Assembly: GCA_043806135.1 (NCBI GenBank)
Contig: JAZDHG010000098.1
Coordinates: 1,660-65,659 of the forward strand
Source of the DNA: Candidatus Omnitrophota bacterium
Lineage (GTDB): Bacteria > Omnitrophota > Gorgyraeia > B26-G9
Length of the DNA stretch: 64,000 bases
Reading direction: 5' to 3'
Positions 9-49,343 of this stretch are shown here, piece after piece. The position numbers and the translations under genes are program-made. Within the stretch, counting starts at the first letter, position 1. Every line of letters begins with the position of its first letter. Under the pieces are notes generated by a model that saw nothing but the letters and a program-made list of their open reading frames with translations, did no database searches and was not told the DNA's origin.

Positions 9-1172
9 TTGATTATTTTTGACGGCCCGGCCTGGATCCTGGCATTGGGAGGAGATGGAGAGTCTCTGGAGAGAACACAAAGAACGCATGTGACGACTTT
101 GTTTGAAAAAGGACAGATTGCGGGATTATTTGATACGGAAGACTATTTAAGGCAGAGTTATGCCGATGGAAACGATTCGATTGATATCCTTGCCCAAATG
201 GATGAATACTCTAAGCGCTTTAGCAGTGAAGTATCAAAAAATTTATTCAGGCGGCATAAACAGGTATCTCTTGATCATGATATGCAGAGTGTAATCAAGA
301 AATACGGACCATGGGACTATGCGGATTTACTCAGAACTGATGAAAGGATCGAGCCAACAACTCTGCGTTATGAAAAACGGGAAGAATATTTATCCAGATA
401 TTACCTGTCGGCATTAGTTGTGGACAGTACTCAAAGCATGCGGAACAATGTGCAGACAAAGGAGATATTAAGAGAGGATATTACCTGGTCAGAGCGCGAG
501 CAATTACTGCGAAAGCTCAATTATGCTACAGAAGGGCTGTCATATGTAGTTTATCGTTCAAAAATAAAAAATTTCTCAAATATGTTTCTTGAGATGCTTC
601 GAAAAGGGGAGACGTCATCAAAGGAGCTGAGTGGTCTGTTTTTCAGCGATGATTTTTCCATAGAACTGCGGTTAGCTGCAGTACAGGCTATATACAGAAA
701 CTTCCATTTTATCAATGGCGGGGAGAAGCTAACTCGAGAAATAGGCAGTAAGCTTATGGACATGATGCAGGACAAACAAAACAACGTGTTCCTGGTTGCA
801 GAAATAGCAAAAACTGTGGGCATTATCGGCTTTGAAGATGCTATTGATTTATTGCATGATTTTCTTGAAAATCCTAAGGCTTATGGTGACTGGCCGTTCT
901 TTAATCTTTATTTTTATCCTTATGCAAAAAGAAGGATAATAGATACCGCTGAGCGGTCTTTGCGGATGCTTATTGAAAAAGTATTAGCCCGTGATGGAGC
1001 ACAAAAGGCCTGGGTAATTTTCAATAAAGTCAACGGTACGCATCCTCTGTTTAAGGATCTGGGTGATAGGATCAGTTTGAAATTGGATACGGACAGGATC
1101 AATGCGGCATTAGGTAAAACGGATTTTCCGCAAATGCACTTTGCTTTTGAGGTCATTACTCAGGCGATATAA
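9..1172 (+). CDS. hypothetical protein, probably 5'-truncated at window edge; alpha-helical HEAT/ARM-like repeats
   Basis: Long ORF open to the window start (begins at a TTG at nt 9, no upstream stop in frame). Helical repeat-like composition. No catalytic motif recognised. Confidence 0.45.
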   Translation: MIIFDGPAWILALGGDGESLERTQRTHVTTLFEKGQIAGLFDTEDYLRQSYADGNDSIDILAQMDEYSKRFSSEVSKNLFRRHKQVSLDHDMQSVIKKYGPWDYADLLRTDERIEPTTLRYEKREEYLSRYYLSALVVDSTQSMRNNVQTKEILREDITWSEREQLLRKLNYATEGLSYVVYRSKIKNFSNMFLEMLRKGETSSKELSGLFFSDDFSIELRLAAVQAIYRNFHFINGGEKLTREIGSKLMDMMQDKQNNVFLVAEIAKTVGIIGFEDAIDLLHDFLENPKAYGDWPFFNLYFYPYAKRRIIDTAERSLRMLIEKVLARDGAQKAWVIFNKVNGTHPLFKDLGDRISLKLDTDRINAALGKTDFPQMHFAFEVITQAI

Positions 1173-1301: not shown

Positions 1302-2441
1302 ATGAAAAAAATAAACAGAATAATCGCATTTGTTTTACTGCAGATATTTTTAATTTCCTGCTCTGCTGCAGGAACGCAGAGAGTATCAGCGCCTGATGAA
1401 TTCGCAATAAGAGACAGTCTTTCTCCCGCTTTAAATCTGAATTCCTCTTATTTGGTAAACGTTTTCCATTACTGGGCGTATCTTAAAAACGTGAATGACG
1501 AGAATATCCAATTTGAACTTACGCGTGGTTTATTAGACAAAACGGGAAAACAGGCCGCAGTTGATAATTCCATAACAAAAGAAAAAGGTGATCCTTCCCG
1601 TGTTTATAATCTTAAAGCGGCATTGGAAGAGCATAAAACAAGTATTTTAATTTTAGTAGAAAAAGGCATGCTGTTTGAAGCATCAGCTAAGTTTCGGATG
1701 ATGAAAGGCCGTGGAGTTGATTTGGATGAGGAACAGGTTGAGCTGCTTAGGGCGCTCAAAAAAACCGGAGATTTTGTTTTTCAGGCCAGAGAATATAAAG
1801 AAGCGCTCAGGTATTATCAGGAGATCATTGATATTGCTCCGCATGAAACAGACATTTATTTTTATATAGGAGCAGCTATGTATATGCGGGGGAATATGGA
1901 CATTGCGCAGGTTAATTTTGAAAAAGCTGTAAAAAAACAGCCGCAGATGCCTATGTTTGTTCTTGTAACCCTGATGTTTGAGGCAAAGAAGCTGGGAGAA
2001 CGCATTTTAGAGCTTACAGATAAGAATAATTTGCAGGTGAAAAAAACACCCGGTAGTTTATTCGATACCTTAAAAAAGTATGATAAATTAATAGGGCATG
2101 TAGAGTACATATTTAAAAACCGGGCTGAAGAAATAGAAACTTTTGTTCTCAATGATGTAAACGGAATGATTATTGACAGCATTTTTGCTGATTTCATCGG
2201 TTATCTGAATAGCTTTGAGAGAAGTTTGCAGGATAGAGAAATACTAGAAATGAACGATATTCTCAAAACTCCTGAGCTTTTCTGGTGGTTGGAAAAGTTG
2301 ACTAAAGGCAAGGTTGTTCCGCTTATACGACCGGTCCGGAGCGGGGAATTTTTAAAATTGGAAAAAGATTTTTTAAAAATAGCAACGATTCTTTCTTTTT
2401 CGGATAAAAAGATGCTTGAATTTGCCGGCCAAGCAATATAA
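1302..2441 (+). CDS. putative lipoprotein with TPR-like repeat
   Basis: N-terminus MKKINRIIAFVLLQIFLISCSAAG has a signal peptide and a lipobox-like LISC. Internal TPR-like segment (REYKEALRYYQEIIDIAPHETDIYFYIGAAMYMRGNMDIAQVNFEKAV). Confidence 0.55.
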   Translation: MKKINRIIAFVLLQIFLISCSAAGTQRVSAPDEFAIRDSLSPALNLNSSYLVNVFHYWAYLKNVNDENIQFELTRGLLDKTGKQAAVDNSITKEKGDPSRVYNLKAALEEHKTSILILVEKGMLFEASAKFRMMKGRGVDLDEEQVELLRALKKTGDFVFQAREYKEALRYYQEIIDIAPHETDIYFYIGAAMYMRGNMDIAQVNFEKAVKKQPQMPMFVLVTLMFEAKKLGERILELTDKNNLQVKKTPGSLFDTLKKYDKLIGHVEYIFKNRAEEIETFVLNDVNGMIIDSIFADFIGYLNSFERSLQDREILEMNDILKTPELFWWLEKLTKGKVVPLIRPVRSGEFLKLEKDFLKIATILSFSDKKMLEFAGQAI

Positions 2442-2893: not shown

Positions 2894-5800
2894 GTGATCA
2901 AAATGTTTAACGCTGGCAAAAAATATAATCTGGCTTTCAGAATAATATCGGCGTTCATTATCCAATCGTTTCTGATTATGGATATTGCTTTTGCTGCCGG
3001 CGGCGACCTGAGATGGATAAAGAAACCTCAAGTTCCCCAATCAAACCTGGCCCCGACTTTCAACATGGAAAAGGGCGCTTTCCGTACAAGATTTGACCTA
3101 ATCGTTTCTCTGATGAACGCTTTTAAAAATAAAGATGAATTGAACTTAGAGCAAATGCGTTCTATGGGAATTAAGTATTTTACAGATTCTATTCTTCAGC
3201 TAAGAGGAGAAAATGAAGTCCTCTATATTTATGAATCCGACAGCAAGGATATCCCGGCTTTTCTTCAAAAATCAGATAATAAGGTCCGCTTTAACGGGTA
3301 TGTGATCGCTGCGGTAACACTTAGCGAACTGGAAAGAGCGGAAAAACCTGCTTTTGACATAAGTAAAGAGGAGTTTAAAAAACAGGGGCTTTTTCCCCGT
3401 CTTAGAATAAAAGTCGAAGAGTACCAGCGAAGAAAACAGTTCATAGATACTTCTGGTCATTATAAGCTTGCTGCTTCTCTTTTAAATGAAGCAATTGATC
3501 TCCCGGAAATGGTCGAAGAACTGCTTTCCAACACCGGAAACCTTAAAAAACTTTATGCTGTTCTTGGTAAAGCCAAAAAGAAATATAATCTGGAAAAAGA
3601 AATTAACTCAAGCCAGCGGCTTTTCATAATAAATGCTTTGCGTGATTTTGATTTTATGCCAAAGGAAACTATCGATGAGCTGAAATGGCGTGCTGAGCAG
3701 GAAGGAATTAATGTAAAGCAACTTGAGCGTCTGAGTCTTGCCAAACTCCGTGTTGAAGGGGCAGCTCAGGCAATTAAAACACAAAGGCCGATCAATGTAT
3801 TTGAGGCTATCAAAGATATTACTTCGCTTGAAAAAGAAATGCTTGATCTTACGGACGAACAGCTTAAAGGGAAAACCGCAGAGTTAAGAGACAGGCTTTA
3901 TGGAAAAGGAAACTTTTCCGGCAAACAGGAAAATTGGGAAGATGTTTTGCCTGAAGCGGCGGCGGTTTTCCGCGAGGCGCTAAGGAGAAAACATCCTGAT
4001 CATCCGCTGCTTTATGATGTTCAGATGATCGCGGGTATTGTCGTTTCTTTCGGCGGCAAGCTCTTACAGCAGTCAACAGGTGAAGGTAAAACATTTACCA
4101 CTGCACTTGGCGCATACTTGCTTTCACTGCGTGATGAAATAAAAACAGGCGTGCATTGCGCAACTGTAAACAACTATTTGGCGCAAAGAGATGCTGAAGA
4201 GGTGGGCAACGTTTTTCAAGCACTGGGCATGAGCGTTAGTGCCTTAGGGGAAGATCATAAAGGTATAAAAATTGTAAACGGCCGCGCAGAAGACACCGAT
4301 CGCAGGAGTGCTTATGAAAGCGACATTGTTTACGGCACAGCTCATGGCTACGGATTTGATTATCTGCAGGATCATCTCAGTACAAGAGTCGGGACAAAGG
4401 TTCAGAAAGGGTTTTTCGCTTCTGTAATTGATGAAGCTGATGAGATCCTGGTTGAAGAAGCTAATACGCCGTTGGTTATGTCCGGCGCTGCTGAAGAAAT
4501 GCCGGAAAAAGAAAGAAATATAAATTACCAGATAGACAATCTCATCAGAAGCTTAATGACCCGTAATGAAAATCAGAAGTATTTCAAGATAAAGCTGGAT
4601 GGAGGAGACAGCCGCAGCGTTACATTTACTGAAGCGGGTTATGATTATATTTACGGCATACTTTCCGGCATGAGTGAAGAGGAATTAAACGACCCGAACC
4701 GGTCTTTTAATGAAGAGCTCGATAGTGAATGGGCATATTTGCGCGCCATTGCGGATAATGCCTTAAAAGTACATCACCTTTATGTTAAAGACACTAAGAG
4801 CGATGAGGCTATTGCAATCGAAGAAGGTAAAATTCGTTACGCGGTTGCAAACGGAGAAGTGTTAACTGTTGCCACAGGCCGAACCCAGGAAGGCCGGCGC
4901 TTTAAAGACGGAATTCACCAGGCATTAGAAGCAAAAGAGCATAATGAAGAAGTACTGGCAGGAATAACTCCGACCATTGAGGTAAGACAAGACCCGGAAA
5001 CAGTTGCCAGTATTTCATTACAGAGTTTTTTTAAAAATTATCTCATCCTTTCCGGGTTAACCGGAACTACCCAGGGTATTGAACAAGAAGTAGCGGAGAC
5101 TTACGATCTTGATACCTTGAATATTCCTACGAATAAGCCGAGCATTCGCCAAGATCTGCCGGATGTCATTTTCAAAACAAAAGAGCAGAAAGATGCGGCA
5201 GTAGCTGCGGATGTCATTAACGAGCATGAAAATGCTACCCCTGTTCTTATTGGAACCGGCGGTGTAAATGAATCTGCGGAAATGGCTCTAAAAATTCAAC
5301 AGGCATTTCCGCGGGCAGTGGGAACAGAAATCATTGATTCAAAAGAGGCTTTGATCAGCCTGGCAGCCAGGATTTTAAACCGCGAAGTTAATGAAAATAA
5401 TCTTTTTAAAGCACTGGAAGAGATCAAAACAAAGGGTGATTTCGGCAAAGAAACTCCCATATTTGTTTTAAATGATACCACTAAGCACCTCGAAAAAGAA
5501 ATAGTGCTGCTGTCCGGATTAAAGGGGTCGATAACTGTGGCTACGGATATGGCCGGCCGCGGTACAGATTTTAAACTGGTTGATTTTGCCAGGATGGTGC
5601 AGGGTTTGTATGTAATAGGTACTGAATATCCGGAAAGCCTGCGTACGGAATACCAGCTGCGCGGCCGAAGCGCCCGGCAGGGACAGCCGGGAAGAACGCG
5701 TTTTTATATAAGCCTTGAAGACAAACTTTTCACCGGTCTTGGCGCAGATATTCCTAAGAAGCTTGCAGATGCAATTAAAAATTCCGGGTCTGAGATATCC

Positions 5801-8800
5801 GGAAAGATAAAGTTGAGCATTACTGTCTTGCGCGGAAAACGCCTGAGTAATGCTTTTAAACAAAGACAGGAATTAAGTAAGGATGACGCGACCCTTAATG
5901 TTTATAGAAAGGTTATTTATAATTTGGTTGATAACCTTATCGATGAGGAACAACCTGTAGACATAGCATCAATTTTATTTTCTTTATATGGAGATAAGAT
6001 CAGCGCGCAGACCTTAGAGATGCAGAAGTCAGCGCTTCTTGAAAAGATGAGCGAGGACGATGTTAAAGCGATCATTGTTGATCTGCTTACCACGCACTGG
6101 ACATATTTTATTAACGGCCTTGAAACAATAAGTAAAACCCGCGGTTTATCAGATCAGCTTTCCGGAAAAGATGAAAAAGTCAACCGCGCTTTATATGAGA
6201 AGAAAACATCTGAGATATTCGATGAGATGCTATCAGACCTGAAGGAAAATGTATTTGCGGCATTGTTGATGCCGTTCATGTCGGAAAACGACAGGGCTGC
6301 TCTTAACAGCGAAGCAGAAGAGACTATAGCACTTGAAAAAGAAGGAGCAAGTATTTTTGATAAACTTGATCCTGAGGAGATAGCGCAAAGGATCAAAAAA
6401 GGGCTGAACATCACAGTAAAAGAAAAGGTGCCGAGTATTGCCGAGCGGTTCAGTAAATGGGTTTTTGGTGAGGAACGCGGAACTACAGCCTTATTAAGTT
6501 CTGTGCTTGCCAAAGGATTTTATGCGTTTATTACAATAGCAGGAATTTTTGGCGGGGTAATTACTCCTGCTAAAACTGAAGCTTCGATTATACCTTCTGA
6601 TGAAGGGTTAACTGTAAAAGTACAGGAAACAAAAGCAGAATTTTCCTTGAATGATAAGAGAAAAACACAGATACTGGCGGAAATTTCTTTTGCGAAGATA
6701 GCTCAGCTTGTCGACTTAAAACTTCGGTCTTCTGAGTTTCAGGAAAAATATACCGGCCGTCCAAAAGAGCAGTTACAAAGCCTGGCTTACGATGAAGTTA
6801 TCCGCGATATTATCAAAAAGTCAGAACTTGGCCAGGATGTGCTGGCTTCATTAAATGATATAAAGGAAGTTGAGCTTGAATCTATTCCTGTTGTGCAGAG
6901 AGCACAATCAGATGTTTTATCCGGTATTGTGGCTGATACGACGTTACAACAGGTTGTAAAAAAATTCCGTATTCCGGTAAAGACACCCTACCGAACAAAT
7001 CTAATGAGCGAGTTCGAAGCAATCCGTGACCAAGGACGGCGAATACATCAAGGTTTTGATTTCCTTGTACAGGCAGGTACGGATATCTATCCGGCAATGC
7101 CGGGAAAAGTAATTTTTTCAGGAGCACTTAACGGTTACGGGAACATGGTGCTGTTGGAGCATGAAGTTGCGGACAGCACAACAGGACTAGTAAATTATTT
7201 TTACACTCTATACGGGCATAATGAGTCGAATCTGGTTAAGGCCGGGGACTATATCGGAGTTGATACTGTGATCGCTAAAGCAGGAGTTACAGGCAACGCG
7301 TCATCAGCTACCGGCGGCTGCCTGCATTTTGAAATCAAACAAACCACGCAAAAAGTCACCAACTATGCTAAATACCTGAATTTGGCAGCTCTTGATCCAG
7401 AGGTTGTGTTAGGGAAAAATTTATATTTGCCTGCCGATATTAACAAACGCGAGCCGATTCTTGTTGCATCAGCAGATCCAAACATGCCTTTGTTCGCAGC
7501 GGATAGGCGGGAAAAGACAAAACAGCCAAAACCTGTTGAAGCGCGAACTCAGACAAGAAGTATTATCGGAGGCCAGATCAGGCATGAGGTAGCACCAGGG
7601 CAAACGCTTAGCATGATCGCTGAAAAATTCTTTGTTAACGGTACTTCCGGGGAAAAAATCAGAGAATTTTATAATAAACAGCATCCGGAAGCTCCTATGA
7701 AAAATTTGATGCTCCTTACCGGAAAGACACTTGTCCTGGATATAGACGAGGAGATAGCATCTTTATTAAGGCCGGAAGATAAAGACATATCAATACAAAG
7801 ACCTGATTCGGAGTTTTCTAATATAACAGAAAATATTCGAATAAGAGAGCAGGGAATAGAGGGGATAGTCAACTTGCCAGTGCGCCTTAAGGGTGGAAAA
7901 ACATCCTTTGAATTTGATGAACGCACGAAGTTTATGGCTTTGCGCGGTGAAAATAAAGACAAAAAAAATCCGGGAGTTGATTTTGTCTTAAAAGAAGAAA
8001 CGCCTGTATATGCTGCAGCTCCAGGAGAGGTTTTCTTTGTAGGTAAAGCAGAAGCATACGGCAATCTTGTTATTATTCATCATACTGTTAAGGATCAAAG
8101 GGAAAATATAAATCATTTTTACTCTCTGTATGCGCACAATAAGAGCAATAATGTAAAAGTAGGACAGTTGGTAGATGCGACAACTCAGATTTCTGTTGCC
8201 GGCAAAACAGGCAAACCGCCAATAAGTGATGCAGATGCTGTGCTTCATTTTGAAATCAGGCGCGGGATAGAAAAACTTGAAAATCATCAGGAATATCTAC
8301 ATGATGCTTCCTACAGTGCTCTTTATCCCGGAATTGCTCTGAAAACTCAGGTGTTAAATCCTGAATTGTTTTTCAATAAGACATTTGACTCAGGCCTTAA
8401 AGCAGGAAGGCTGATTGTTCCACAAAATGAATATAAGCCTTTATCTGCTCGAAATATTGAGCAAGATAAAGTAATATCCCGTCAGGATCTTGAGTATAGA
8501 ATTGCCCAAAGTATGAGAAATAGAAATTTAAACATTATCCCTGAAGGATTGATGAACGCGATTGTATATCAGCAGCTGGCTAAGGAGTTTGGAGTTGAGT
8601 TTTATCAGCCTGAGGCGGGTCTAAAGGGTGATGATTATTTTGAAAAACTTATGAAGGCGGTTCGTGCAAAGCATGGAGAAGATGTTCTTATTGTTGAAGG
8701 GCATTTTAATTCAGTACCAGAAATGATGTTCTTTTTTAAAGAAAACGGGATTCAATATATCTCTAAAGTTAAGCACGGTGAAGTAAAACAAAAAAAACAT

Positions 8801-29800: not shown

Positions 29801-30283
29801 GACTTTGTGGAGGAGTTTGGCTTTGGTGATTTAATAAAAACGCAAACAGAGCAGATTGTGAGATTATTGCTTATACTCTATATGGTTAGTAAAGAAGTAA
29901 CGATTAATATATTTGATTTACCCGATGATCCGGCTGGTTTTATAAATGCCATGGAACATCTCAATATTAATTATAAAGCGATTGAAGATGAGATTATTAA
30001 CACTGATTTGAATGTTAAGGCAAAACTTGAAAGCGGGCAATCAGTAGGACTCTTTAATGGTTTATTAGAGATAAGGGTTAATGAAAGAGGTCAAGATAAG
30101 GTTTTGGTATTAACAGTTTCAGAGTCTGCTGACAAAGAAAAGATCATTGACTTAACACCGGAGATGATCATTAAGCCTGAAGCTCAAAAGGCTACTGAAG
30201 ACGCTTTAGATAAGGCAATACCCGGAATTGAGAAAAAATTAACGCTTGAAGATACCAGAGAGCTTATTGGTAATGCAATTTAG
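2894..30283 (+). CDS. giant multidomain protein (9129 aa): signal-like leader; embedded SecA-like ATPase motor; two M23 peptidase-like and two LysM-like modules; ~9 tandem repeats; polytopic membrane domain
   Basis: Uninterrupted 27.4-kb ORF. A good RBS (AGGTGA) sits 5 nt before the ATG at 2903, which is the likely true start; the GTG at 2894 is in frame. The SecA hallmarks span nt ~3830-5950. They include [110 protein letters not shown]...[76 protein letters not shown] and an HSD-like [25 protein letters not shown]. M23 motifs: HQGFD...CLHFE (7046-7345) and NPGVD...VLHFE (7966-8265). LysM-like segments lie at 7577-7745 and 9370-9566. TM helices lie at 21950-22020, 23800-24010 and 25806-27130. 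Confidence 0.85.
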   Translation: [9129 protein letters not shown]

Positions 30284-31048: not shown

Positions 31049-31687
31049 ATGCCTATAAGAGCGGACGTGGTTAGCGGAAGAATGTATCATGTTTTTACGA
31101 AAAGCATCGCCGGATTTATTGTTTTTAATAATGATGCTGAGTATGACAGGATGATCTATGCATTAAACTATTATAAGATCATGGGAATTGGCTACTGCTA
31201 TTCAGACTATATCAAACATGTTTATAAAACTGATTTATTGAAAGATAAAGATCAAACAGTAGATATTATCGCATATTGTTTAATGCCCACACATTTACAT
31301 TTTATTCTCAAACAAAATGTCGATAAAGGCATATCACTCTTTATGAGAAAGGTTCTCAATAGTTATTCTAAATATTTTAATTGCAAAATTAAAAGAAAAG
31401 GCCCTTTGTGGGAAAGTAGATTTAAAAATGTTAAGATAGAGAATGATGAACAGTTAATGCATTTAACCCGATATGTGCACTTAAATCCTGTTACCGCAAA
31501 CTTGGTAAAAAAACCAAATTTTTGGAAATATTCTTCATATAATGAATATCTGAACAAGACAAAAGAAAAAATATGCAACTATGGCGAGGTTTTGGATATT
31601 GATCCAGGGGAATATAAAGAATTTGTTGGGTCCCAAATAGATCATCAAAAAGAATTAGCGCATATCAAGCATTTAATCCTTAAATAA
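31049..31687 (+). CDS. REP-associated tyrosine transposase (RAYT) / IS200-like Y1 (HUH) transposase
   Basis: HUH motif in CLMPTHLHFIL. Conserved GPLWESRF (compare G-x-LWQ-RF of Y1 transposases). Catalytic Tyr context RYVHLNPV followed by ...WKYSSY. RBS AAAGGAG upstream. Flanked by REP-like hairpins. Confidence 0.8.
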   Translation: MPIRADVVSGRMYHVFTKSIAGFIVFNNDAEYDRMIYALNYYKIMGIGYCYSDYIKHVYKTDLLKDKDQTVDIIAYCLMPTHLHFILKQNVDKGISLFMRKVLNSYSKYFNCKIKRKGPLWESRFKNVKIENDEQLMHLTRYVHLNPVTANLVKKPNFWKYSSYNEYLNKTKEKICNYGEVLDIDPGEYKEFVGSQIDHQKELAHIKHLILK

Positions 31688-32040: not shown

Positions 32041-32400
32041 ATGAAAAATATCATGCATTTTCTTAGTTGGAGGTTGATGTTCTTAACGACCGTACTTCTA
32101 TTTTTAATGCATTTTTTTGTCTTTATGTCGTGTAGTAAGTTAGATGAAAAAGTGATTGCCTGTGACCAAGGTAATAAAATGCGATTTGTTATCTATAATA
32201 CACTTTCAACTAAAGTTATGATAGGTTATGAGGATTTTAGGCAATTATTTTATCAACCCCTGCGCAAAGGTTCAACAGCAGTAATGAATGCTGAGTTATT
32301 AGGTTCAATGTTTTATTCTTCATCAGTGCCTGTAATTACGAGACGACTCAGGATCAAGGATCCCAGGGGTCACTATATAATGATAGGTAGTGCTATTTAG
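32041..32400 (+). CDS. small hypothetical protein with N-terminal hydrophobic/signal-like segment, immediately upstream of giant gene 2
   Basis: ORF with AGGTGA RBS. Hydrophobic N-terminus ending in FMSCSK (possible lipobox). 8-nt gap to the next ORF suggests co-transcription. Confidence 0.4.
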   Translation: MKNIMHFLSWRLMFLTTVLLFLMHFFVFMSCSKLDEKVIACDQGNKMRFVIYNTLSTKVMIGYEDFRQLFYQPLRKGSTAVMNAELLGSMFYSSSVPVITRRLRIKDPRGHYIMIGSAI

Positions 32401-40758: not shown

Positions 40759-41160
40759 ATGAGTATATTATTAAAAGAAGACATAATCAGGAAAGCAACG
40801 GATTTCTTTTTAAAAAGGCCGGAAGTTAAATTTGCTTATTTGTTTGGGTCTGTCGCTCTTGGAAAGAGCAATAAATTGAGTGATGTGGATATTGCTGTGT
40901 TTATTGACAATGATTATTTAAAAGAAAATAAATTTACTTATGGATATAAAGCAGAGCTTATAACAGAGCTTATTAAAGTTCTAAGAACAAATAGCGTGGA
41001 TTTAGTTATTTTAAACAGTGTCCCTGTTCTGCTTAAGCATAAGGTTTTGGTAGGAGGTAAATTGCTTGTTTGCCGTGATGATTCAGAAAGAATTAGATTC
41101 CAAGTGAAAAGCCTGAATGAATACAGTGATCTTAAATGTTTGTTTTTAACGCATAATTAG
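40759..41160 (+). CDS. mntA: MntA-type minimal nucleotidyltransferase, antitoxin of a HepT/MntA type VII TA pair
   Basis: GS-x9-11-DxD Pol-beta NTase motif in YLFGSVALGKSNKLSDVDIAVFID. 133 aa. Directly followed (11-nt gap) by a HEPN/DUF86 gene. Confidence 0.8.
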   Translation: MSILLKEDIIRKATDFFLKRPEVKFAYLFGSVALGKSNKLSDVDIAVFIDNDYLKENKFTYGYKAELITELIKVLRTNSVDLVILNSVPVLLKHKVLVGGKLLVCRDDSERIRFQVKSLNEYSDLKCLFLTHN

Positions 41161-41171
41161 AAGAGGCCGCA

Positions 41172-41591
41172 ATGGTTGACGCGCAAATATTGGTCGTAAA
41201 GCTTAAGGAATTAGAAAAATATATCGCTGAATTAGAAAAATTAAAAACAACTTCCCTTGAAACGCTGTCAAAGGATTTAAACAAAATATGGTCACTTGAA
41301 CATGGTTTGCAGTTATCGATTCAAATAATTATTGATATTGGCAATCATATTTTAGCTGATATGAAAGAAAGCAATATAGAAACTTATACTGATGTTATTG
41401 ATCTGTTAGGTGTGAAAAAAGTAATTCCCGTTGATTTCGCGAAACGTATACGCGCAATGGTTGGGCTTAGGAATATTCTTGTTCATGAATATGTAGAAGT
41501 GGATTTAAAACAGCTTTATTCAGTATTGCGGAATAATTTAGATGATTTTAAAGAATTCGTTAAATTAATTAGATGTTTTTTGAAGAAATAA
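41172..41591 (+). CDS. hepT: HepT-type HEPN (DUF86) toxin of the type VII TA pair
   Basis: R-x4-HxY HEPN motif in GLRNILVHEY. 139 aa. Gene order NTase-then-HEPN is typical of MntA/HepT. Confidence 0.8.
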   Translation: MVDAQILVVKLKELEKYIAELEKLKTTSLETLSKDLNKIWSLEHGLQLSIQIIIDIGNHILADMKESNIETYTDVIDLLGVKKVIPVDFAKRIRAMVGLRNILVHEYVEVDLKQLYSVLRNNLDDFKEFVKLIRCFLKK

Positions 41592-42005: not shown

Positions 42006-45000
42006 ATGAACAATTTACTTTCCAAATCCTGGTTTCGCTTTATTTCCATTATACTTATCCAGTCATTTTTAATATTAGATATTGCCTGGGCAGGAGGCAC
42101 AGAACTTAATCTTAAGAAAAATTCCGATACGCTTTCCGCCCCGGTTGAAATCTCCCAGCAGATGTTTAATACAAGTTTTGGGAAACTTTATGAGATGAAC
42201 GTTCCTAAGGCGGCTAAGAATTTATCTGTTGGAATAGAAGAAAAAAAATCAAAATGGTCATTATCACAAATATGGCAATCTTTTAAGAAAAGTTTAAAAA
42301 ATAATCTGAGTTTGTTGCATCAGGCTTTTTCAATGGACAAAAAATCTGATGATGACAATGATTTTACGTCAGGCCTTAGATCTATCTTAATCCTGGCAAT
42401 GCTAACCCCCGCTCTTATTGCTTTAAGCTCAAGTCTTGGCTGGACAGGAGATAAAAATTTAATAGAAAGTACAAATGGGCTTATTTCTTATATCCCATTT
42501 AAAGAAATAAAAGATAGCACATATGCTTTCTATTACAACCTTTCCATACAGGGGCAAGTGGTTTTGTTTTATACAATTCTGCCGGTAATGCTCGGTCTTG
42601 TTATTGCTGGAGTTAAGGGTGTATTCGATAGTATAAGTAATAGAAATATTAAAAAAGCTGATCGCTCAAAACTACAATCATTTATGATTCCTCTTATACT
42701 CTCTCCCGCACTTATTGCCTTAAGTTCCAGTCTTAGCTGGGCAGGGGAGGGCACATCAATAGATGGCTCAATAATAGGCGGGGTGTTGGGTACATTGGCC
42801 CTTGCTGTAGGTATCGGGGCGGTGAAGTTCAGGAAAAATATACGCCTTGGTTTAAAGAAGTCATCAAATAAAATTACAGATAAAACTGCCAATGTGTTGA
42901 CGCCAATTTTACAGAAAGTTGTGAAGTCAAAATATTTCTGGGCGGGTCTTGTTGGGCTTTCGGTTTTTGTGAATGGGGGGGGTGTTCCAATGAATGTTGC
43001 TGTAATAGCAACTGTGATATCAGTTTCAGCAGCAATTTCGATTTTGTTTACAACTAAAATATCCCGTTCAACTAAAAAATTACTTACTCTATTATTGTCA
43101 GTGGTTATTTTTACTATTATGGGGTGTTCTCTTCATGAAACTAAAGTTACGAGCAGAAGCTTAACCGAATATCAAAATGTTGGTGATAATAAAGATACAT
43201 TTTCAAAAATAAGTAAAGAAAAAATGAGCTTTAAACAATTGGTTGCTATTTTAGAAAACGAAAATGAGCAGGAAGAAAATAGAATTAAAGCAGCTTTAAT
43301 GTTAAGTGACTTTAAACATAAAAAATTAGAGGATATACTCATAAAACAATTATATGCAACTAAAAAAGTTGATATAAACTTTGAATCAGGGCGAGAAATT
43401 GGTTATATCCGTAGTTTTCATTATGATAAACTAGATGCTAATAAATTGCAAGCAACAGCTGCTTGGATATTGGGGGAAAGGAAGAGTGAAAAAGCTGTTG
43501 AGAACCTGATACTTTTATCTGAATCAGGAGATAACTATGATCATTATCCTAAATTGAATAACTATATTTCTGCTTACTGGCCTCAATATACGGATTTGAT
43601 TGATTCCCGCTTAAATCTTCAAATTAATAGTATTATTGCTTTGGGAAAGATAGGCAACAAAAAAGCAGAGAAGTATTTAAAAACAAGGATGCTAAATAAT
43701 AATAATTGGCAAGTAGATTACGCGGTGTTATCTGCGCTATCTGAATTGGGAGATGAGAAAGCAATATTTTATGAGAAAATTTTTCGAAGTGATATTAGTT
43801 TTGTAGATAGAATAAGCAATGTTGCTAAACAAATAATCCGTGAATACCAGGAAAAGGGATTAGAAAGTCGTGTTAGAGAATATCTGATCGAAGTTTTTGT
43901 GGCAAATTCTAAATGGATAAATAATAGCTTGTATTCTAATCTTCGCTATCAAATGACGGCAGGTGTCTTGCTAAAGTTTTTAGGCGGAGATGATGTTGAT
44001 AGAATCTTTGCTGAATTTTCGAATAACATAGGGTCGAGAAGTATTGGTTATGATTTAAAAGTATTCTATGATCGTCTATTATCAAAGCATGATGATTATT
44101 TCGTTGATTCTTTAGATGTAAGACAATTAATTGATAATTTAAGTTTTACAGATCGAGTAGTGCTATTAACTCGATTAGAGAAGTTATTTGCTCTTAATGA
44201 AGAAGTAAAGCGAACAAATCAATGGTTTCTATTACGAAGGAATGAAATGAAGCCTTCAATAAGGGATAGGGTGGGCAGAGAAATCCCAAAACTAAAAGAG
44301 TTTATTATTAAAGAAATTTCTTCTATTGATGGTTTCGAAGAAATTGTAAAAGAAATGTGCTTTCTTAGGGGGCAAGGTGCTCTTTTTAGAGAAATAAAAG
44401 AGAAACTAAAACAATTTGAATATAAAGATGATAATAGTTCAAAGGAAAGATCGAATATCAGCAAGATTATAATAGCAGTTTTAGCTTCTCCCGTTCTTGT
44501 TGCCTTAAACTCAGGTATTGGCTGGGCGGGGGACGGGGGGCAACAGACGGCAGCGGGATTTAGTAGCCTTTTGAATGGGCAAACGGCACTGGGGATTTTG
44601 TTGGCTGCAGCTGCGTTAATAAGTTTAGACTTTGTATTTTATCGTCACTTTTCAACTAAGATTAAACAATGGGTTTCAAATATTAAGAGCAAGCTAAAAG
44701 ATGATAATACTTCAAGTTATAAAGTAATATCCCCCTCTGAACATGGAAAAAGCAGGCTTTCTGAAAGTCGTGATGAGGCTCAGAAGATCATTTCGTTTTT
44801 AGCCCCACAGGATCAACTGCCTGAAAAAGTAAACGCACTACTGGCGTTTGGTAATGAAGATCTCGAGACGCCTATCCGGGCGGCCAAAGTATATTTTGAT
44901 ACAAAGCCTGAGGTTGTTGTTTTTGCCGGTGGTATTGGTCATTCTACACAAAATCTTTGGGAAATAGGCAGCGAATATTTAGGCGTAGATCTGGAAACAT

Positions 45001-47975
45001 TGAAAGGCTTAAGCGAGGCAGAAATTTTTGCCTGGATTTTTAAGGAAGAATTGAAAAAACTTGGCATGCCTGCCGAGGAAATAGGCAAAATAAAAATATT
45101 ATTGGATACAACCTCACGCAATTCTCAGGAAAATGCCAGAAACAGCTTAAAACTGCTTTATAATAACGGATTTCTAGCAGGCCAGATGAGTATTATTCTT
45201 ATGCAAAAGCCATTGCTGCAAATAAGAGCAGGCGCGAACTTAAGAAGAGAAATTAAGACCATGGAAACAGAGCTTGGGGAGAAATTTTCAATACAATGCT
45301 TTAATCATGCACCATATGTGCCGGATATAAGCTTGATGCAAGATGCAGAATTAGAAGAAATCACAAATGATGCCTTGGGTGAGATTGAAAGGCTGAAGAT
45401 GTACCCTGCTCTGCGTTTTAATTTCATTGATACAATTGAAATTCCAGAAAATGTAAACAAAGCGTATTATGAACTTAAAAAAAATCTTTACCCGGACCGA
45501 TCTATTGAATCTGAGGGAAAACTTGTTGCCGGGTTAATTAAGGAACAGGATAGAACAAGGACTGATATAGATAGGCCTATCCAGGTTGAGTCAGGAGAAT
45601 ATAAAGCAGGTTCGTCTTTTATTAACTTTGCGACTGAACGTTATCAGGGATCCTTATATTTGATTGAAGGAAGCGCTAATGCACAGATAAAAGGTGAAGA
45701 GGGAATTATTCAAACCATAGAATTGGGTAAAGGAGATATTATTAATCTGTTTGTTAACTCTGATATTGTTTTTACAGAGGATTCTAAATTTTATATTTTT
45801 AGGCAGACCGATGCTTCTCAAACTTCAGTAGATCATAAAGAAAAACTTGATGGTGAGGTAACCATTGATTCACGCAATGTTATCGAAAAAGATAGGAATA
45901 TAATTGCTGACGTTTACAGAGATGCGCGAGGTGACTTAATAGCTACTGTTCATAGAATTGATATGGCTTCGCCGGCAAAAATGGTGATGACTACGCCGCG
46001 CAGCGCTGCTATTGGTATTGGTGTAAAAACAGCTATTGGAGATGAAGCTGCTCATCGTCATGAATTAGACGGAAAAAGCAAGATAGAGATTGCACTTTGC
46101 CGAATGGGGTCTCTGACTGCCTATGTTGGGAATAAAGAGGGTAAAGATGTTAATGAAGTCGATGTTAAACAGAATGAGCTGTTAATTCTTTATCCAGACA
46201 GTACTCATGGATTTGAATTCAATAACGCTAAAATGGCAATTATTATCCAGGATCCCGGACGCGGGATTGACAAGGTTGATGCTAAACTTGAAAAAACAAC
46301 TGAAATAACGCTTGGTGCAGCGGAAAAACTTAAGACAGAGCCGGAATCGGTAATTACGGAAGCTATTAAACTTCAGGAACAGGATAAACAGGAAGAGGCA
46401 ATGGCTCTTATCCTTAACTCTTTGCTGGACAAGAACCTTAATCCAGCGGATTATGCGTCTTTTTACCAGGTTTTTGATAAAGAAAGCGGCGATTTTATCG
46501 GATATATGCTTGACGGCAAAGTATATATCAGAGGGGTAGGGTATGAATATAAAGAGTTACTTAATGGCGGGTATAATCCTCTTAAACATGTGCTTCGTGC
46601 CATTTCTGATTTATCTTTTGAAGAAATTATTTCGCTGCCATATGCAGGCAGCTCTTTTAACAAGAATGGGAGGTTGATCGGCACGGTTATTAAAGCAGAT
46701 GATTCGAGGGCACAGAACGGGCCGTATTTGTATACAGCCCAGGAAAATCCTTTAAGAGTCAGGAGTTTTCACGCCGCAAAAGGAACAAAAAGCGAAAAGT
46801 ATCTGCTATCGCCGGTCTCTGAACCTAATCCGTTTGGCAACAGGCCGAGACAGGAAGTATGGCATGTGTTAAAGGGAAAAATCAGGTGTGTGTTCTATAC
46901 CAAAGACAATGAGTATATAGGCGAACAGGTCATGTCTAAAGGCGACACTGCTTTGTTTTCAGAAGCTCATCAGGTGTTTTTTGAAGAAGATTCTATAGTC
47001 CTTGAAATAAGGCAAGGCCCGTGCTCTGCTGATGAGTCGGATAGGCAGATTCTGGATGATGTTGATAATGCTGTTTCAGGATATATAGAAAATGCCGCAG
47101 ACCTTTCGTTCACCGCATTCAAAAAGGAAAACAGGTTAGTTGGAGCAGTAGTCAAAGCAAATCATGTGCCTTTTGACAAGCTGCAAAAATTCTCCGCAAT
47201 GCCTGATCCTATCCAATTTAACAGCTTTTACAAGGATAAAGGCATGAGGGGAACAAAACTTTATCACCCTCCTGTACAGGGTGAAAGTCCCTTCAAGGAC
47301 CAGCCGAGACAGGAAGTGTTATTTATCCTCAAAGGTAAGGTAAGGGTTAAATTTTCTACTGTGGAAAATATCGATGTGGCAGAGGAAATATTAGAGGCCG
47401 GGGATGCTGTTTTGTTTACAGAGGGACATGTGGTTGAGTTCCTGGAAGATACGGTTTTTTTAGAAGCTAAACAAGGACCGTATCCGTCTTCAGGCAATAA
47501 AGATGATGATCAGATTGTATTAAATGAAAACATTGCTCCGGAAAATACAAAATTCGGAAAGCTGGGAATTAATTTTGAACATATTACAAAAACAGCACAA
47601 CTTAACCCTGAGCTGCCGCTTTTTGACTTGATTCTTCAAGATAGTAATTCTCTGGATCCAACCCTGAAGGGAAAAGTTGACCAGTTACAACAGATGGCAA
47701 CAGCGTTCTTTATTAAAGGGGAATTTGATAAAGTAATAGAAACTATTCAAGAAATAATCAAGATATATCCAAATAGTTTTGAAGTGATGCGGCTAATAAT
47801 GGACGGAGTGAAAGAACATAAAGCATTAGCTTCACGCGAACCTGAGATGAAGCTTTTTATTGAATCTAAAGGGACTGTTCTTGAACTGACCGGGGATGAA
47901 ATGCCGTTAAAAGATGCTGTAGGAGCCATTGAAGCAGGTATGAGAGCCGGACAGTTTTTGATGCAGGCGATATAA
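42006..47975 (+). CDS. giant membrane-associated protein (1989 aa): conserved leader; reiterated hydrophobic-helix+WAG modules; DUF218 (SanA/ElyC/YdcF-like) domain; two tandem cupin-like domains
   Basis: RBS AAAGGAA upstream of the ATG. Leader MNNLLSKSWFRFISIILIQSFLILDIAWAGG. Internal modules PALIALSSSLGWTGD (42381-42452), PALIALSSSLSWAGEG (42681-42752) and PVLVALNSGIGWAGDGG (44466-44540). Several other TM helices lie in 42540-43130. DUF218-like segment at 44815-45250 (LLAFGNED...VVFAGGIGHST...TTSRNSQENARNSLKLL). Cupin-like repeats at 46680-47030 and 47140-47490, each with PRQEV...LKGK(I/V)R...GD(T/A)(A/V)LF(S/T)E(A/G)H. Confidence 0.85.
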   Translation: MNNLLSKSWFRFISIILIQSFLILDIAWAGGTELNLKKNSDTLSAPVEISQQMFNTSFGKLYEMNVPKAAKNLSVGIEEKKSKWSLSQIWQSFKKSLKNNLSLLHQAFSMDKKSDDDNDFTSGLRSILILAMLTPALIALSSSLGWTGDKNLIESTNGLISYIPFKEIKDSTYAFYYNLSIQGQVVLFYTILPVMLGLVIAGVKGVFDSISNRNIKKADRSKLQSFMIPLILSPALIALSSSLSWAGEGTSIDGSIIGGVLGTLALAVGIGAVKFRKNIRLGLKKSSNKITDKTANVLTPILQKVVKSKYFWAGLVGLSVFVNGGGVPMNVAVIATVISVSAAISILFTTKISRSTKKLLTLLLSVVIFTIMGCSLHETKVTSRSLTEYQNVGDNKDTFSKISKEKMSFKQLVAILENENEQEENRIKAALMLSDFKHKKLEDILIKQLYATKKVDINFESGREIGYIRSFHYDKLDANKLQATAAWILGERKSEKAVENLILLSESGDNYDHYPKLNNYISAYWPQYTDLIDSRLNLQINSIIALGKIGNKKAEKYLKTRMLNNNNWQVDYAVLSALSELGDEKAIFYEKIFRSDISFVDRISNVAKQIIREYQEKGLESRVREYLIEVFVANSKWINNSLYSNLRYQMTAGVLLKFLGGDDVDRIFAEFSNNIGSRSIGYDLKVFYDRLLSKHDDYFVDSLDVRQLIDNLSFTDRVVLLTRLEKLFALNEEVKRTNQWFLLRRNEMKPSIRDRVGREIPKLKEFIIKEISSIDGFEEIVKEMCFLRGQGALFREIKEKLKQFEYKDDNSSKERSNISKIIIAVLASPVLVALNSGIGWAGDGGQQTAAGFSSLLNGQTALGILLAAAALISLDFVFYRHFSTKIKQWVSNIKSKLKDDNTSSYKVISPSEHGKSRLSESRDEAQKIISFLAPQDQLPEKVNALLAFGNEDLETPIRAAKVYFDTKPEVVVFAGGIGHSTQNLWEIGSEYLGVDLETLKGLSEAEIFAWIFKEELKKLGMPAEEIGKIKILLDTTSRNSQENARNSLKLLYNNGFLAGQMSIILMQKPLLQIRAGANLRREIKTMETELGEKFSIQCFNHAPYVPDISLMQDAELEEITNDALGEIERLKMYPALRFNFIDTIEIPENVNKAYYELKKNLYPDRSIESEGKLVAGLIKEQDRTRTDIDRPIQVESGEYKAGSSFINFATERYQGSLYLIEGSANAQIKGEEGIIQTIELGKGDIINLFVNSDIVFTEDSKFYIFRQTDASQTSVDHKEKLDGEVTIDSRNVIEKDRNIIADVYRDARGDLIATVHRIDMASPAKMVMTTPRSAAIGIGVKTAIGDEAAHRHELDGKSKIEIALCRMGSLTAYVGNKEGKDVNEVDVKQNELLILYPDSTHGFEFNNAKMAIIIQDPGRGIDKVDAKLEKTTEITLGAAEKLKTEPESVITEAIKLQEQDKQEEAMALILNSLLDKNLNPADYASFYQVFDKESGDFIGYMLDGKVYIRGVGYEYKELLNGGYNPLKHVLRAISDLSFEEIISLPYAGSSFNKNGRLIGTVIKADDSRAQNGPYLYTAQENPLRVRSFHAAKGTKSEKYLLSPVSEPNPFGNRPRQEVWHVLKGKIRCVFYTKDNEYIGEQVMSKGDTALFSEAHQVFFEEDSIVLEIRQGPCSADESDRQILDDVDNAVSGYIENAADLSFTAFKKENRLVGAVVKANHVPFDKLQKFSAMPDPIQFNSFYKDKGMRGTKLYHPPVQGESPFKDQPRQEVLFILKGKVRVKFSTVENIDVAEEILEAGDAVLFTEGHVVEFLEDTVFLEAKQGPYPSSGNKDDDQIVLNENIAPENTKFGKLGINFEHITKTAQLNPELPLFDLILQDSNSLDPTLKGKVDQLQQMATAFFIKGEFDKVIETIQEIIKIYPNSFEVMRLIMDGVKEHKALASREPEMKLFIESKGTVLELTGDEMPLKDAVGAIEAGMRAGQFLMQAI

Positions 47976-48470: not shown

Positions 48471-49343
48471 ATGGAAAAAAATTTGATTTTAAAGACGATA
48501 TTGATTTTGCTGATGAATAGTTTTTTATTGCTTGATATCGCTTGGGCAGGGGGTGTTAATTTGTCTGTGTCTGAAAATTCGGATACCCTTGCTGCCCCTA
48601 TACAGATAAATAAAACTTCATTTTTCAATACAGCCTATACCATCAATGTAAAACCCCAAATACTTACGAGTGAAAAAGGAGAGATGCCTGCTGAACTTGC
48701 CAAATTGCTTCCCAGAAGGAAGGTGGATAGATGGGTTTGGAATGATGAATTAAATATGTATATAGGTATTTATGCTAAAGACAATACGGAAGAAAAAAAG
48801 AAGAATTTGGAATTGTCCGGCCCAGAAGAACAAACATCTGCTCAACTAATTGAAAAACGCCGTATTCCTATATTTGAATCAAAAAGGGATGTAATTCTTT
48901 GCATAGGATTATTGGCGACGTTTTATGTCGCGGTTATGGTCCCGCTGATAGCGGGGGTTTGGAATCGTGTCTATGACATCTTCCCGAGAATGTTTATGTC
49001 GTATTCCATATGTATGGGTGGGGCTATTGCCATAGCTGCTATAGTTTCTGCGTTAATAATCCCTAATTTACTGCCTTGGCAAAAAATCGGGTTGGCTTTA
49101 AGTGAAATATTTAAATCTTCATCTACAGAGCCAGAACCGATAGTTAGCAACAAAAAAGATCAGTATTTGCTGAATAGTCAGAATTTAGACAGCTTGCCGG
49201 GAAATCTATATCAAGAGCCTGTACAGGCTGGAAAAACACCTGAGCCTATAGCCTTTAGCGAAGCGGTGAAAAGCCTTGATAAGGGGTTGTTAGAGAATAA
49301 CCTTCTTTTATTTAATCTTAAACTTATTGCTGCTTCTTTATAA
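48471..49343 (+). CDS. membrane protein (290 aa) carrying the same conserved N-terminal leader as giant proteins 3 and 1
   Basis: N-terminus ...LILLMNSFLLLDIAWAGGVNLSVSENSDTLAAPIQINKTSFFNTAYTINV aligns with G3 ...LIQSFLILDIAWAGGTELNLKKNSDTLSAPVEISQQMFNTSFGKLYEMNV. Two to three C-terminal TM helices. RBS AAGGGA upstream. Confidence 0.6.
   Translation: MEKNLILKTILILLMNSFLLLDIAWAGGVNLSVSENSDTLAAPIQINKTSFFNTAYTINVKPQILTSEKGEMPAELAKLLPRRKVDRWVWNDELNMYIGIYAKDNTEEKKKNLELSGPEEQTSAQLIEKRRIPIFESKRDVILCIGLLATFYVAVMVPLIAGVWNRVYDIFPRMFMSYSICMGGAIAIAAIVSALIIPNLLPWQKIGLALSEIFKSSSTEPEPIVSNKKDQYLLNSQNLDSLPGNLYQEPVQAGKTPEPIAFSEAVKSLDKGLLENNLLLFNLKLIAASL

Follow-up and report, generated by a model that had tools for sequence, protein, structure and literature searches.

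A leader peptide and a fixed C-terminal tail form a two-ended tag on giant proteins and their neighbours in Candidatus Omnitrophota

How are the giant proteins of Omnitrophota, and the many proteins encoded beside them, directed to the place where they work? The ATP- and S-adenosylmethionine (SAM)-dependent modules of these giants are placed outside the cell by predictors, and their targeting and possible cutting were left unexplained (10.1101/2023.11.21.568195; 10.64898/2026.06.07.730766). We approached this question in a giant-gene locus of Candidatus Omnitrophota bacterium, a stretch of 64,000 nucleotides here referred to as "the window" (GenBank assembly GCA_043806135.1, contig JAZDHG010000098.1, positions 1,660 to 65,659), whose layout is that of the "archaeovorin" locus type of West-Roberts et al. 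(10.1101/2023.11.21.568195). A preliminary description of the window had proposed that an N-terminal leader of about 60 residues is shared by the giant G3, a 290-residue protein and, more loosely, the giant G1. We found that this leader is the N-terminal half of a two-part tag, of which a fixed C-terminus is the other half; a fourth leader in the window, the family-wide spread of the leader and the coupled C-terminal tail had been overlooked. The leaders of the window are listed below, with the arrow marking the predicted cleavage site.

42006-42197 (+), the whole leader of G3, amino acids (aa) 1-64
42006..42092 (+), its signal-peptide-like part, aa 1-29
42093..42197 (+), its conserved post-site segment, aa 30-64
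48471..48638 (+), leader of the 290-aa protein, aa 1-56, with the site A-W-A↓G-G after aa 26
2903..3109 (+), leader of G1, aa 1-69 counted from the ATG at 2903, which is the true start, with the site A-F-A↓A-G-G and a SNLAP box
1302..1481 (+), the fourth leader, on the open reading frame (ORF) 1302-2441, reading MKKINRIIAFVLLQIFLISCSA↓AG...DSLSPALNL

The leader of G3 is composed of an n-region MNNLLSKSWFR, a core FISIILIQSFLIL and a c-region DIAWA. The predicted site A-W-A↓G-G is followed by GGTEL...SDTLSAPVEIS, which contains what we call the LSP box, and then by an amphipathic QQMFNTSFGKLYEM. The peptides of G3 and the 290-aa protein are indeed present where they had been described, and the likeness of their parts behind A-W-A reached z=15.4, a score attained by 0 of 2000 shuffles. 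The looser sharing ascribed to G1 also holds: the helices of G3 and G1 gave z=11.9 against shuffles, their post-site parts gave a pairwise z=0 without significance, and the G1 leader retains the L-A-P box that is invariant in the family. The same G3 helix compared with the ordinary signal peptide of a glycosidase in the window (GH at 51308) gave z=-0.1. At the DNA level, most wobble positions differ between the leaders of G3 and the 290-aa protein, for example GAT ATT GCC TGG GCA GGA GGC versus GAT ATC GCT TGG GCA GGG GGT. This divergence indicates purifying selection on the peptide and an old paralogy, and it rules out a recent duplication or gene conversion of the leaders.

The leader is by no means confined to the window. 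Pattern scans of genome and metagenome contigs from a six-sequence leader alignment gave nine loci, and the three coming from genome records are Omnitrophota metagenome-assembled genomes (MAGs). A hidden Markov model (HMM) of ten leaders, run against every stop-to-stop ORF of the window and the nine loci, obtained 23 matches (21 distinct) with E-values of 1e-29 to 3e-5, the next score being 0.009. Each of them is at the N-terminus of its ORF and on the coding strand; tandem arrangements are frequent, one of them in locus L007 having five consecutive leaders. Moreover, an exhaustive search of 1.84 billion representatives with a profile made from the window sequences alone recovered 177 clusters at E up to 1e-3, 30 of them at E up to 1e-10. 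The whole profile aligned at about residues 1-70 of proteins of 49 to 6383 aa. Exceptions to this pattern were limited to a single repeat protein and to a few matches that begin 20-100 residues inside, probably because of mis-called starts. The named clusters (7/10 sampled) all belong to Ca. Omnitrophota. Thus the leader is carried by at least 177 otherwise unrelated protein families within giant-gene regions of Omnitrophota, and the tagged proteins span 120 to >9000 aa. No Pfam or NCBIfam model matches the leader region. Word-indexed protein searches, for which the leader alignments and G1 aa 1-300 served as queries, retrieved only 2-3 matches, their index under-sampling the clade.

The other end of these proteins is fixed as well. 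Leader-bearing proteins end in the consensus L(-7)-x-L(-5)-(I/V)(-4)-(E/G)(-3)-(Q/S/R)(-2)-(A/S)(-1)-I(0)-COOH, and the final (A/S)-I is present in 92 of 149 representatives. Among the other 57, 30 are shorter than 300 aa and are probably fragments, and five carry the near-variants EQGV, NQAV, EQAV, QQGI and IEAA. Six tails were found in the window, as follows.

1146..1169 (+), FEVITQAI-COOH, on the ORF with its end at 1172, whose homologue at position 5023 of locus L003 has a leader
2415..2438 (+), LEFAGQAI-COOH, on the ORF 1302-2441
30257..30280 (+), RELIGNAI-COOH, on G1
32374..32397 (+), YIMIGSAI-COOH, on the 119-aa ORF 32041-32400
47949..47972 (+), GQFLMQAI-COOH, on G3
49317..49340 (+), the variant tail LKLIAASL-COOH, on the 290-aa protein

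The tail is absent in the window from G2, the PilZ protein, the transposase, the toxin-antitoxin pair, the major facilitator superfamily (MFS) transporter and all glycosidase and carbohydrate-binding-module (CBM) proteins; the glycosidase and CBM proteins start with generic, unrelated signal peptides. To measure the coupling of the two ends, we took the complete ORFs of the window and twelve loci that are at least 120 aa long. Leader and tail occurred together in 36 ORFs, the leader only in 2, the tail only in 3 and neither in 131 (Fisher p=4e-31). Of the two ORFs with the leader only, one is a frameshifted G1 orthologue and the other encodes the 290-aa protein with its variant tail. Those with the tail only comprise the 119-aa ORF, an ORF that continues a gene past an in-frame stop, and one whose divergent leader escaped the HMM. 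The tails are written with different codons and stop codons, which shows that selection acts on the protein. In global alignments of 53 and of 31 full-length members, only the two ends are conserved (mean column identity 8-11%). A sortase- or exosortase-type C-terminal signal was considered and rejected, since the tail consists of 8 residues ending in ...Q-A-I-COOH with no hydrophobic helix after them. The tail and its coupling to the leader are new. Literature searches found no described Omnitrophota leader or tail, and by term search the leader, the LSP box, the tail and the coupling are all absent from 10.1101/2023.11.21.568195 and 10.64898/2026.06.07.730766, in which signal peptides are mentioned only as predictor calls.

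In locus L003 the frame of the G1 orthologue shifts after about 330 aa (~10950-10960), just before its SecA module, and this reflects either an assembly error or a disrupted gene.

We then counted the residues of the leader over 146 representatives (profile positions), which gave the following pattern.

Position 10, F in 91/146
Position 11, K/R in 140/146
Positions 12-24, hydrophobic core of 13 residues, bounded by K/R11 and D/N25
Position 19, Q/N/H in 139/146
Position 21, F in 142/146
Position 22, L in 127/146
Position 25, D/N in 141/146
Position 27 (-3), small (A/S/C/T/V/G) in 144/146
Position 28, W in 114/146
Position 29 (-1), A/C/S in 143/146
Position 30 (+1), G/A in 129/146, with no Pro among the residues listed
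Position 47, L in 144/146
Position 48, A/S in 140/146
Position 49, P in 123/146
Position 51, L/V/I in 134/146
Position 53, I/L in 132/146
Position 62, F/Y in 124/146

By this pattern the leader reads as a textbook n-h-c signal peptide in which the fixed residues greatly outnumber those that Sec or signal peptidase would require. The n-region is basic and ends in F-(K/R). The core is within the range of about 7-15 residues of Sec signal peptides, and the charge falls past it as in such peptides (+69/-3 in the n-region versus +22/-36 over the 15 post-site residues of 22 leaders). The small residues at -3 and -1 and the lack of Pro at +1 agree with the rule for signal peptidase I, so that the A-(W/F)-A↓GG junction had been rightly recognised as a candidate AxA site. 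Behind the site, a linker of 10-20 residues, acidic or neutral, leads from position 30 to the box L-(A/S)-P-x-(V/I/L)-x-(I/L) at 47-53, which is followed by a short F...F..LY helix. The unusual conservation past the site is thus real and extends over about 35 residues; an HMM of this part alone recovers members outside the training set, correctly placed (E 1e-4 to 7e-3). The helix of divergent members has drifted towards the look of an ordinary signal peptide, and their LSP box stands at an unchanged distance. Such members also keep the small-x-small pattern (CSA↓A, VFA↓S, VYA↓G, ASA↓G, LYA↓A and SFA↓A), which we read as selection on a real signal peptidase I site. Within the helix, positions 14, 17/18, 21, 24/25 and 28 form a heptad-like conserved stripe. 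An AlphaFold2 model of the 66-aa leader with 5 sequences gave a helix at 3-31, a coil and a helix at 51-64, with no tertiary structure and a pLDDT of 63.

Other classes of signal fit the leader poorly. A lipoprotein signal (signal peptidase II) is rejected because Cys is the majority residue at no site position and the W-C-G variants (12/146) do not fit a lipobox. A Tat signal is rejected because the n-region is K-rich, has no RR and carries a single K/R before the core. The G↓F/M-T-L-x-E motif of prepilin (class III) signals is absent from the leaders, and N_methyl was found only in the unrelated ORF at 62403.

Several side observations concern the leaders themselves. The G1-type leaders (2996-3030 in the window; also P0003, P0005, P0010, P0014, P0017 and P0022) make up a sub-family marked by additional invariant residues, K-x-Y-N ahead of the core and A-A-G-G-D-L-x-W-x-K behind it. 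Positive charge just past the site is higher in them than in G3-type leaders and could alter the translocation or cleavage of this sub-family. The N-terminus of G2 (32409-32650) is of another kind, with a signal-like SLIIAFAFVCTSIIPPGYA followed by TTLNLPKPGVMIPQSPAFVPVLLKGMTIYPDNPLRFDFIVDNG. The 119-aa ORF has a lipoprotein-signal-like start, and its match to the leader HMM is marginal (E=0.009). An in-frame TAG lies within the leader domain of a G3-like gene in L001 (1152-1154) and L008 (1132-1134), where the leader reads LSAPV-stop-ISQQQF compared with LSAPVEISQQMF in G3. The TAG-bearing sequence is identical in a GTDB MAG contig and a Joint Genome Institute (JGI) metagenome contig, and its truncated 49-aa product is P0132 in the protein library; it could be a pseudogene, a case of read-through, or one population sampled twice.

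What kind of signature, then, is this? A generic Sec signal peptide, whose likeness between proteins would be due to chance, composition or recent local duplication, would account for the ordinary n-h-c layout and the A-x-A site. It would leave unexplained the near-invariant core residues, the conserved post-site residues, the z-scores of 15.4 and 11.9 beside the -0.1 for a real generic signal peptide, the number of clusters retrieved, the wobble-position divergence and the coupling to the tail. We reject it, leaving it almost no probability, and the generic nature by which the preliminary description would have been overturned was not observed. Scarcely more probable, and likewise rejected, is a double-glycine leader of the bacteriocin type, which a C39 peptidase domain acting on the cytoplasmic side would remove behind G-G. 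Giant proteins of Omnitrophota commonly contain C39 domains, which were reported near the N-termini of other giants (10.1101/2023.11.21.568195; 10.64898/2026.06.07.730766), and many members do read ...A-W-A-G-G. The G-G nevertheless varies and changes register (variants include AAGG, in which an Ala is inserted, AGN, ASE, AGP, ATG and AAN) and it is the small-x-Ala that is conserved; moreover, the helix is fully hydrophobic, not of the amphipathic LSxxELxxIxGG type, and no C39 domain occurs in the proteins of the window or the scanned loci. Taken together, the near-invariant core, the post-site conservation of about 35 residues, the 177 unrelated clusters and the coupling to the tail make a dedicated sorting signature, as had been suspected, which is also absent from the neighbouring glycosidases. 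The results show a dedicated, lineage-specific, two-ended tag on these proteins.

How the tag works is a harder question. The explanation that we prefer, with a probability of roughly 0.45, is that the leader is a specialised Sec signal cut by signal peptidase I after A-W-A, and that the LSP box and the QAI tail serve a second step of sorting or assembly shared with the giant. The helix would bring the nascent chain to the Sec machinery of the inner membrane in an N-in orientation, and signal peptidase I would cleave after A-W-A. A dedicated partner would then read the new N-terminus (GG... and the LSP box) together with the free C-terminal tail, and would sort, secrete or join the modules at the envelope or the prey interface, along with the two-ended G1. 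The conserved residues within the core point to a specific reader at the targeting step, and the SecA paralogue within G1-type giants is an obvious candidate for it.

A number of observations weigh against this specialised Sec signal, above all the cargo. The sequences between leader and tail are unrelated among the members and mostly consist of cytoplasmic-type domains, including HEAT, TPR, DUF218, cupins and several methyltransferase families. There are enzymes such as PPDK ATP-grasp, NDK, guanylate kinase, PGI, transaldolase, transketolase, glutamate dehydrogenase and PGM, and further GGDEF, cNMP-binding, HD, NUDIX, AAA+, HATPase_c, CofD, patatin and GDPD domains. The extracytoplasmic-type cargo expected behind a Sec signal was not found; overwhelmingly the cargo is of a type that needs ATP, GTP, SAM or NAD, and this lowers the claim of a secretion signal. 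It is essentially the domain repertoire found inside archaeovorin giants, which makes the tagged proteins look like unfused modules. The order of domains in G1 points the same way. Its SecA-like ATPase module (3779..6004, +; G1 aa 293-1034) matches solved SecA structures at E=1e-92 and has intact Walker A (GEGKT), DEAD and MAGRGTD motifs. The stretch from the leader to this module contains no hydrophobic segment, and in G1, P0022 and P0042 alike a Walker-A ATPase follows the leader with no membrane helix between them, in contrast to P0017, which has eleven helices there. The SecA module is immediately followed by one helix, beyond which lie, in G1, the wall-degrading M23 and LysM domains, an order that fits only a cytoplasmic post-leader region. 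With membrane helices called by Kyte-Doolittle hydropathy windows and topology by a crude positive-inside count, 11 of 13 locus proteins favour an "inside" post-leader part. Among 69 complete representatives the count is 42 versus 24 for "inside" (p=0.036), weaker in this larger sample and thus suggestive only; hairpin flanks have 113 versus 68 K/R, and two-helix proteins stand 13 versus 5 for "inside". GGDEF and cNMP-binding domains occur on some tagged proteins, with RGGDEF motifs in P0025 and P0032, and GGDEF cargo adjoining leaderless PilZ genes argues for the cell's own cytoplasm. This context hints at control of the system by cyclic di-GMP from the cytoplasm. Furthermore, the loci yielded neither a dedicated peptidase gene nor a receptor gene. 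The clustering of leader genes with a specific peptidase or sortase-like gene, to which the preliminary description had looked, did not materialise: none recurs near them, and an M48 peptidase in L009 is a single, non-recurrent case.

Such observations would suit a tag for membrane tethering or assembly, in which the helix engages the membrane or translocon without serving for secretion and the cargo stays on the cytoplasmic face; this is the main and a serious rival of the specialised Sec signal, and we regard it as possible, on the doubtful side. The leader would, for example, stay in a Sec-type channel as a signal-sequence loop or be packed on a partner helix, and with similar reserve the LSP box and the tail may be taken as docking peptides that join modules to one another or to the giant, giving a non-covalent giant protein. 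The cytoplasmic-type cargo, the domain logic of G1 (SecA inside, one helix, M23 and LysM outside), the weak positive-inside bias and the lack of the tag on the ordinary exoenzymes of the locus speak for it, and the heptad-like stripe suits helix-helix packing. So does the alignment of the G1 module, which begins only at SecA residue 12 and shows that a leader-bearing extension replaces the canonical N-terminal helix; on the tether, the leader of G1 would replace the lipid-binding N-terminus of canonical SecA. The DUF218/cupin module, which stands after a basic-flanked hairpin in G3 and directly after the leader in P0013 and P0023, is a further point in its favour. Against it, the charge bias is clearly N-in, which for a spanning helix would place the cargo outside; there is no return helix, and the leader is the sole hydrophobic segment in 23 of 92 complete members. 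A retained leader would thus need an unusual geometry. The 13-residue core with a conserved Asp near its end would be a poor permanent anchor, the small-x-small pattern that survives in divergent members is needless for a mere anchor, and the strict N-terminal position is typical of signal peptides. A bolder form of the specialised Sec signal takes the tag as the mark of a complete and hitherto invisible protein set of predatory or host-dependent Omnitrophota, in which cytoplasmic-type enzymes, signalling domains and a SecA motor would be exported by a specialised Sec step, joined head-to-tail (LSP strand with QAI tail) or handed to a surface machine, and work outside the producer's cytoplasm. 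We hold this unlikely, and no more readily would we assume that the site of action is a prey-fed compartment or the prey interior, the set being a split, non-covalent archaeovorin.

A tagged protein of 445 aa, P0123 (L015 18364-19701), has a weak Peptidase_A8 (signal peptidase II) match and six predicted membrane helices. It is the sole peptidase-like tagged member seen, and the match is too weak to build on.

Does the leader recur inside G3, as had been described? Three elements are found there, at the places that had been given:

42360..42452 (+), element 1, aa 119-149, a basic flank and the helix SILILAMLTPALIALSSSLGW, then TGD
42660..42749 (+), element 2, aa 219-248, ending in ...ALSSSLSWAGE
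44445..44534 (+), element 3, aa 814-843, ending in ...ALNSGIGWAGD, with a return helix 13 residues on

These are real repeats, alike among themselves (own HMM, independent E-values (i-E) of 1e-15 to 1e-17) and conserved in relatives, with 20 matches in 11 G3-like proteins, including those of L006, L001 and L014. As copies of the leader, however, they are rejected for want of significant sequence or profile similarity. The leader HMM gave i-E of 0.27-250 on them, their own HMM matches no leader, and hhalign gave a probability of 12% over 12 columns, so that the reiteration of a helix with WAG within G3 stands and its derivation from the leader does not. Only the terminal W-A-G-(G/D) is shared. 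Each element is a helix of 20-21 residues that has a Pro in its middle, basic residues on its N-terminal flank and an acidic end, and 8-38 residues further on comes a return helix; we read the elements as the first helices of membrane hairpins, and they form a separate conserved family. G3-type proteins might instead be polyproteins cut by signal peptidase I at G/S-W-A/T↓G-D/E, which would release anchored modules as in flavivirus polyproteins. The N-in, signal-like make-up of the elements (basic N-flank, hydrophobic helix, small-W-small and acidic residue), the agreement of G/S-W-A/T↓G with the -3/-1 rule, their conservation in the 11 G3-like proteins, the W-A-G common to them and the leader site, and a lipobox-like ...IMGC after another internal helix (G3 aa 371-374) are in accord with it. 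Helices of 20-21 residues each with a return helix are on the other hand the normal look of stable hairpins, statistical homology to the leader is lacking, and no relative has a gene boundary at an element, so we consider such cutting improbable. The lipoprotein-signal-like stretch just mentioned lies at 43074-43127 of G3 (aa 357-374) and consists of a basic KISRSTKK, the helix LLTLLLSVVIFTI and M-G-C; it immediately precedes the HEAT region, and ...ISGFTGC takes the equivalent place in the G3-like protein P0009.

The two-ended tag resembles several known systems and shows the membership marks of no named family, which makes it an analogue and not a member. The closest parallels are with the substrates of the accessory Sec system (SecA2/SecY2), serine-rich repeat (SRR) adhesins with a long specialised signal peptide, an AST domain of 30-40 aa that is needed for routing, and a C-terminal LPXTG (PMC6973325). 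Common to both are proteins of very large size, a conserved mature stretch behind a specialised signal peptide, a C-terminal motif and a dedicated SecA paralogue in the locus. In contrast to that system, there is no sequence similarity, the tag is carried by many unrelated enzyme families instead of one adhesin, the SecA paralogue is embedded in a tag-bearing giant, and the tail is 8 residues with a free carboxylate instead of LPXTG plus a membrane helix. The window gave no SecY2 or Asp1-3 match, a glycosyltransferase set was not seen either, SRR repeats are missing from the cargo, and none of the NCBIfam signal models (including KxYKxGKxW) matches. Omnitrophota are assumed to have two membranes. 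The YSIRK-G/S, KxYKxGKxW and ESPR signals are also Sec-type signal peptides with extra conserved residues that route a subset of proteins; they differ from the present leader, which has F-K at the n/h border, Q/N-x-F in mid-core and D-x-x-W in the c-region, about 35 conserved mature residues and a paired C-terminal tail.

Two end signals framing unrelated cargo, in lineage-specific families with many paralogues, are likewise known from the sortase/LPXTG, exosortase/PEP-CTERM, rhombosortase/GlyGly-CTERM and type IX C-terminal domain (CTD) systems. Unlike these, the tail here reads ...L-I-E-Q-A-I-COOH with no helix plus basic cluster and no folded CTD, the cargo is of the cytoplasmic type, and no sortase-like gene was found in the loci. 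The oomycete RxLR and Plasmodium PEXEL are host-targeting motifs behind signal peptides on effectors. They share with the tag a signal peptide followed by a short motif 10-40 residues on, diverse cargo and an organism living on another cell, and differ in being eukaryotic, with no sequence relation and no C-terminal partner motif (for Plasmodium export see PMC10096305). Short end peptides could also join separately encoded, array-borne subunits head-to-tail, a candidate likeness with chaperone-usher pilins and with the docking domains of polyketide synthases (PKS) and nonribosomal peptide synthetases (NRPS). In the pilins an N-terminal extension strand is combined with a C-terminal strand whose carboxylate is gripped by the chaperone, and they share one immunoglobulin-like body, whereas the bodies here are unrelated. 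PKS docking domains are located in the cytoplasm and lack a hydrophobic leader. Finally, the archaeovorin giants of the same phylum share the locus type (SecA_DEAD, M23 and many membrane helices, then PilZ), the enzyme-domain repertoire and the paradox of "extracellular" cytoplasmic-type enzymes (10.1101/2023.11.21.568195).

A short, searchable tag at both ends is the first sequence handle on the targeting of giant proteins. It lists the proteins that share the giants' fate (at least 177 clusters, from 120 to >9000 aa), sets the giants' companions apart from ordinary secreted hydrolases, and makes the question of topology directly testable. An exported cargo would amount to an unusual secretome of central-metabolism and signalling enzymes, and a retained one to a new mode of tethering and joining modules at a membrane.

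The other genes of the locus, all on the + strand, are arranged as follows.

ORF with its end at 1172 (+), its N-terminus beyond the window edge
1302-2441 (+), ORF of 379 aa with TPR repeats
2903-30283 (+), G1, 9126 aa, with the SecA-like ATPase, two M23 peptidase domains, LysM and GH76; its membrane helices are clustered at about residues 7000-8100
30499-30858 (+), PilZ gene, about 119 aa, directly 3' of G1
31049-31687, IS200/Y1 transposase, between the PilZ gene and the 119-aa ORF
32041-32400 (+), the 119-aa ORF, ending 9 bases upstream of G2
32409-39938 (+), G2, with carbamoyltransferase and radical SAM domains
40759-41591, a nucleotidyltransferase/HepT (MNT/HepT) toxin-antitoxin pair after G2
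42006-47975 (+), G3, 1989 aa, with HEAT repeats, a DUF218-like region (under the Pfam cut-off) and cupins
48471-49343 (+), the 290-aa protein
Downstream of the 290-aa protein, an MFS transporter, glycosidases and CBM-like proteins
62403, a prepilin-type gene with the N_methyl motif

Type II secretion-like clusters next to giant genes were reported by West-Roberts et al. (10.1101/2023.11.21.568195). Together with the tandem arrays of tagged genes and the prepilin-type gene, they speak in favour of the specialised Sec signal. SecA-bearing giants are syntenic across several loci, and the order giant, PilZ, array, MFS transporter and GH2_C is also present in loci L005, L013 and L014, where tandem arrays of tagged genes follow the giant gene and PilZ as in the window. 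In every syntenic locus the PilZ gene, of about 119 aa and without leader or tail, stands directly 3' of the giant (other copies at L005 4890-5249, L013 3657-4019 and 33693-34055, and L014 1665-2024). Mobile or selfish genes were found within the arrays of tagged genes, at 31049-31687 and 40759-41591 in the window and at L014 5741-6409, L012 2551-3609 and L013 7898-8952. The IS200/Y1 transposase also occurs at the matching place in L014, and DDE and rve transposases occur in other loci.

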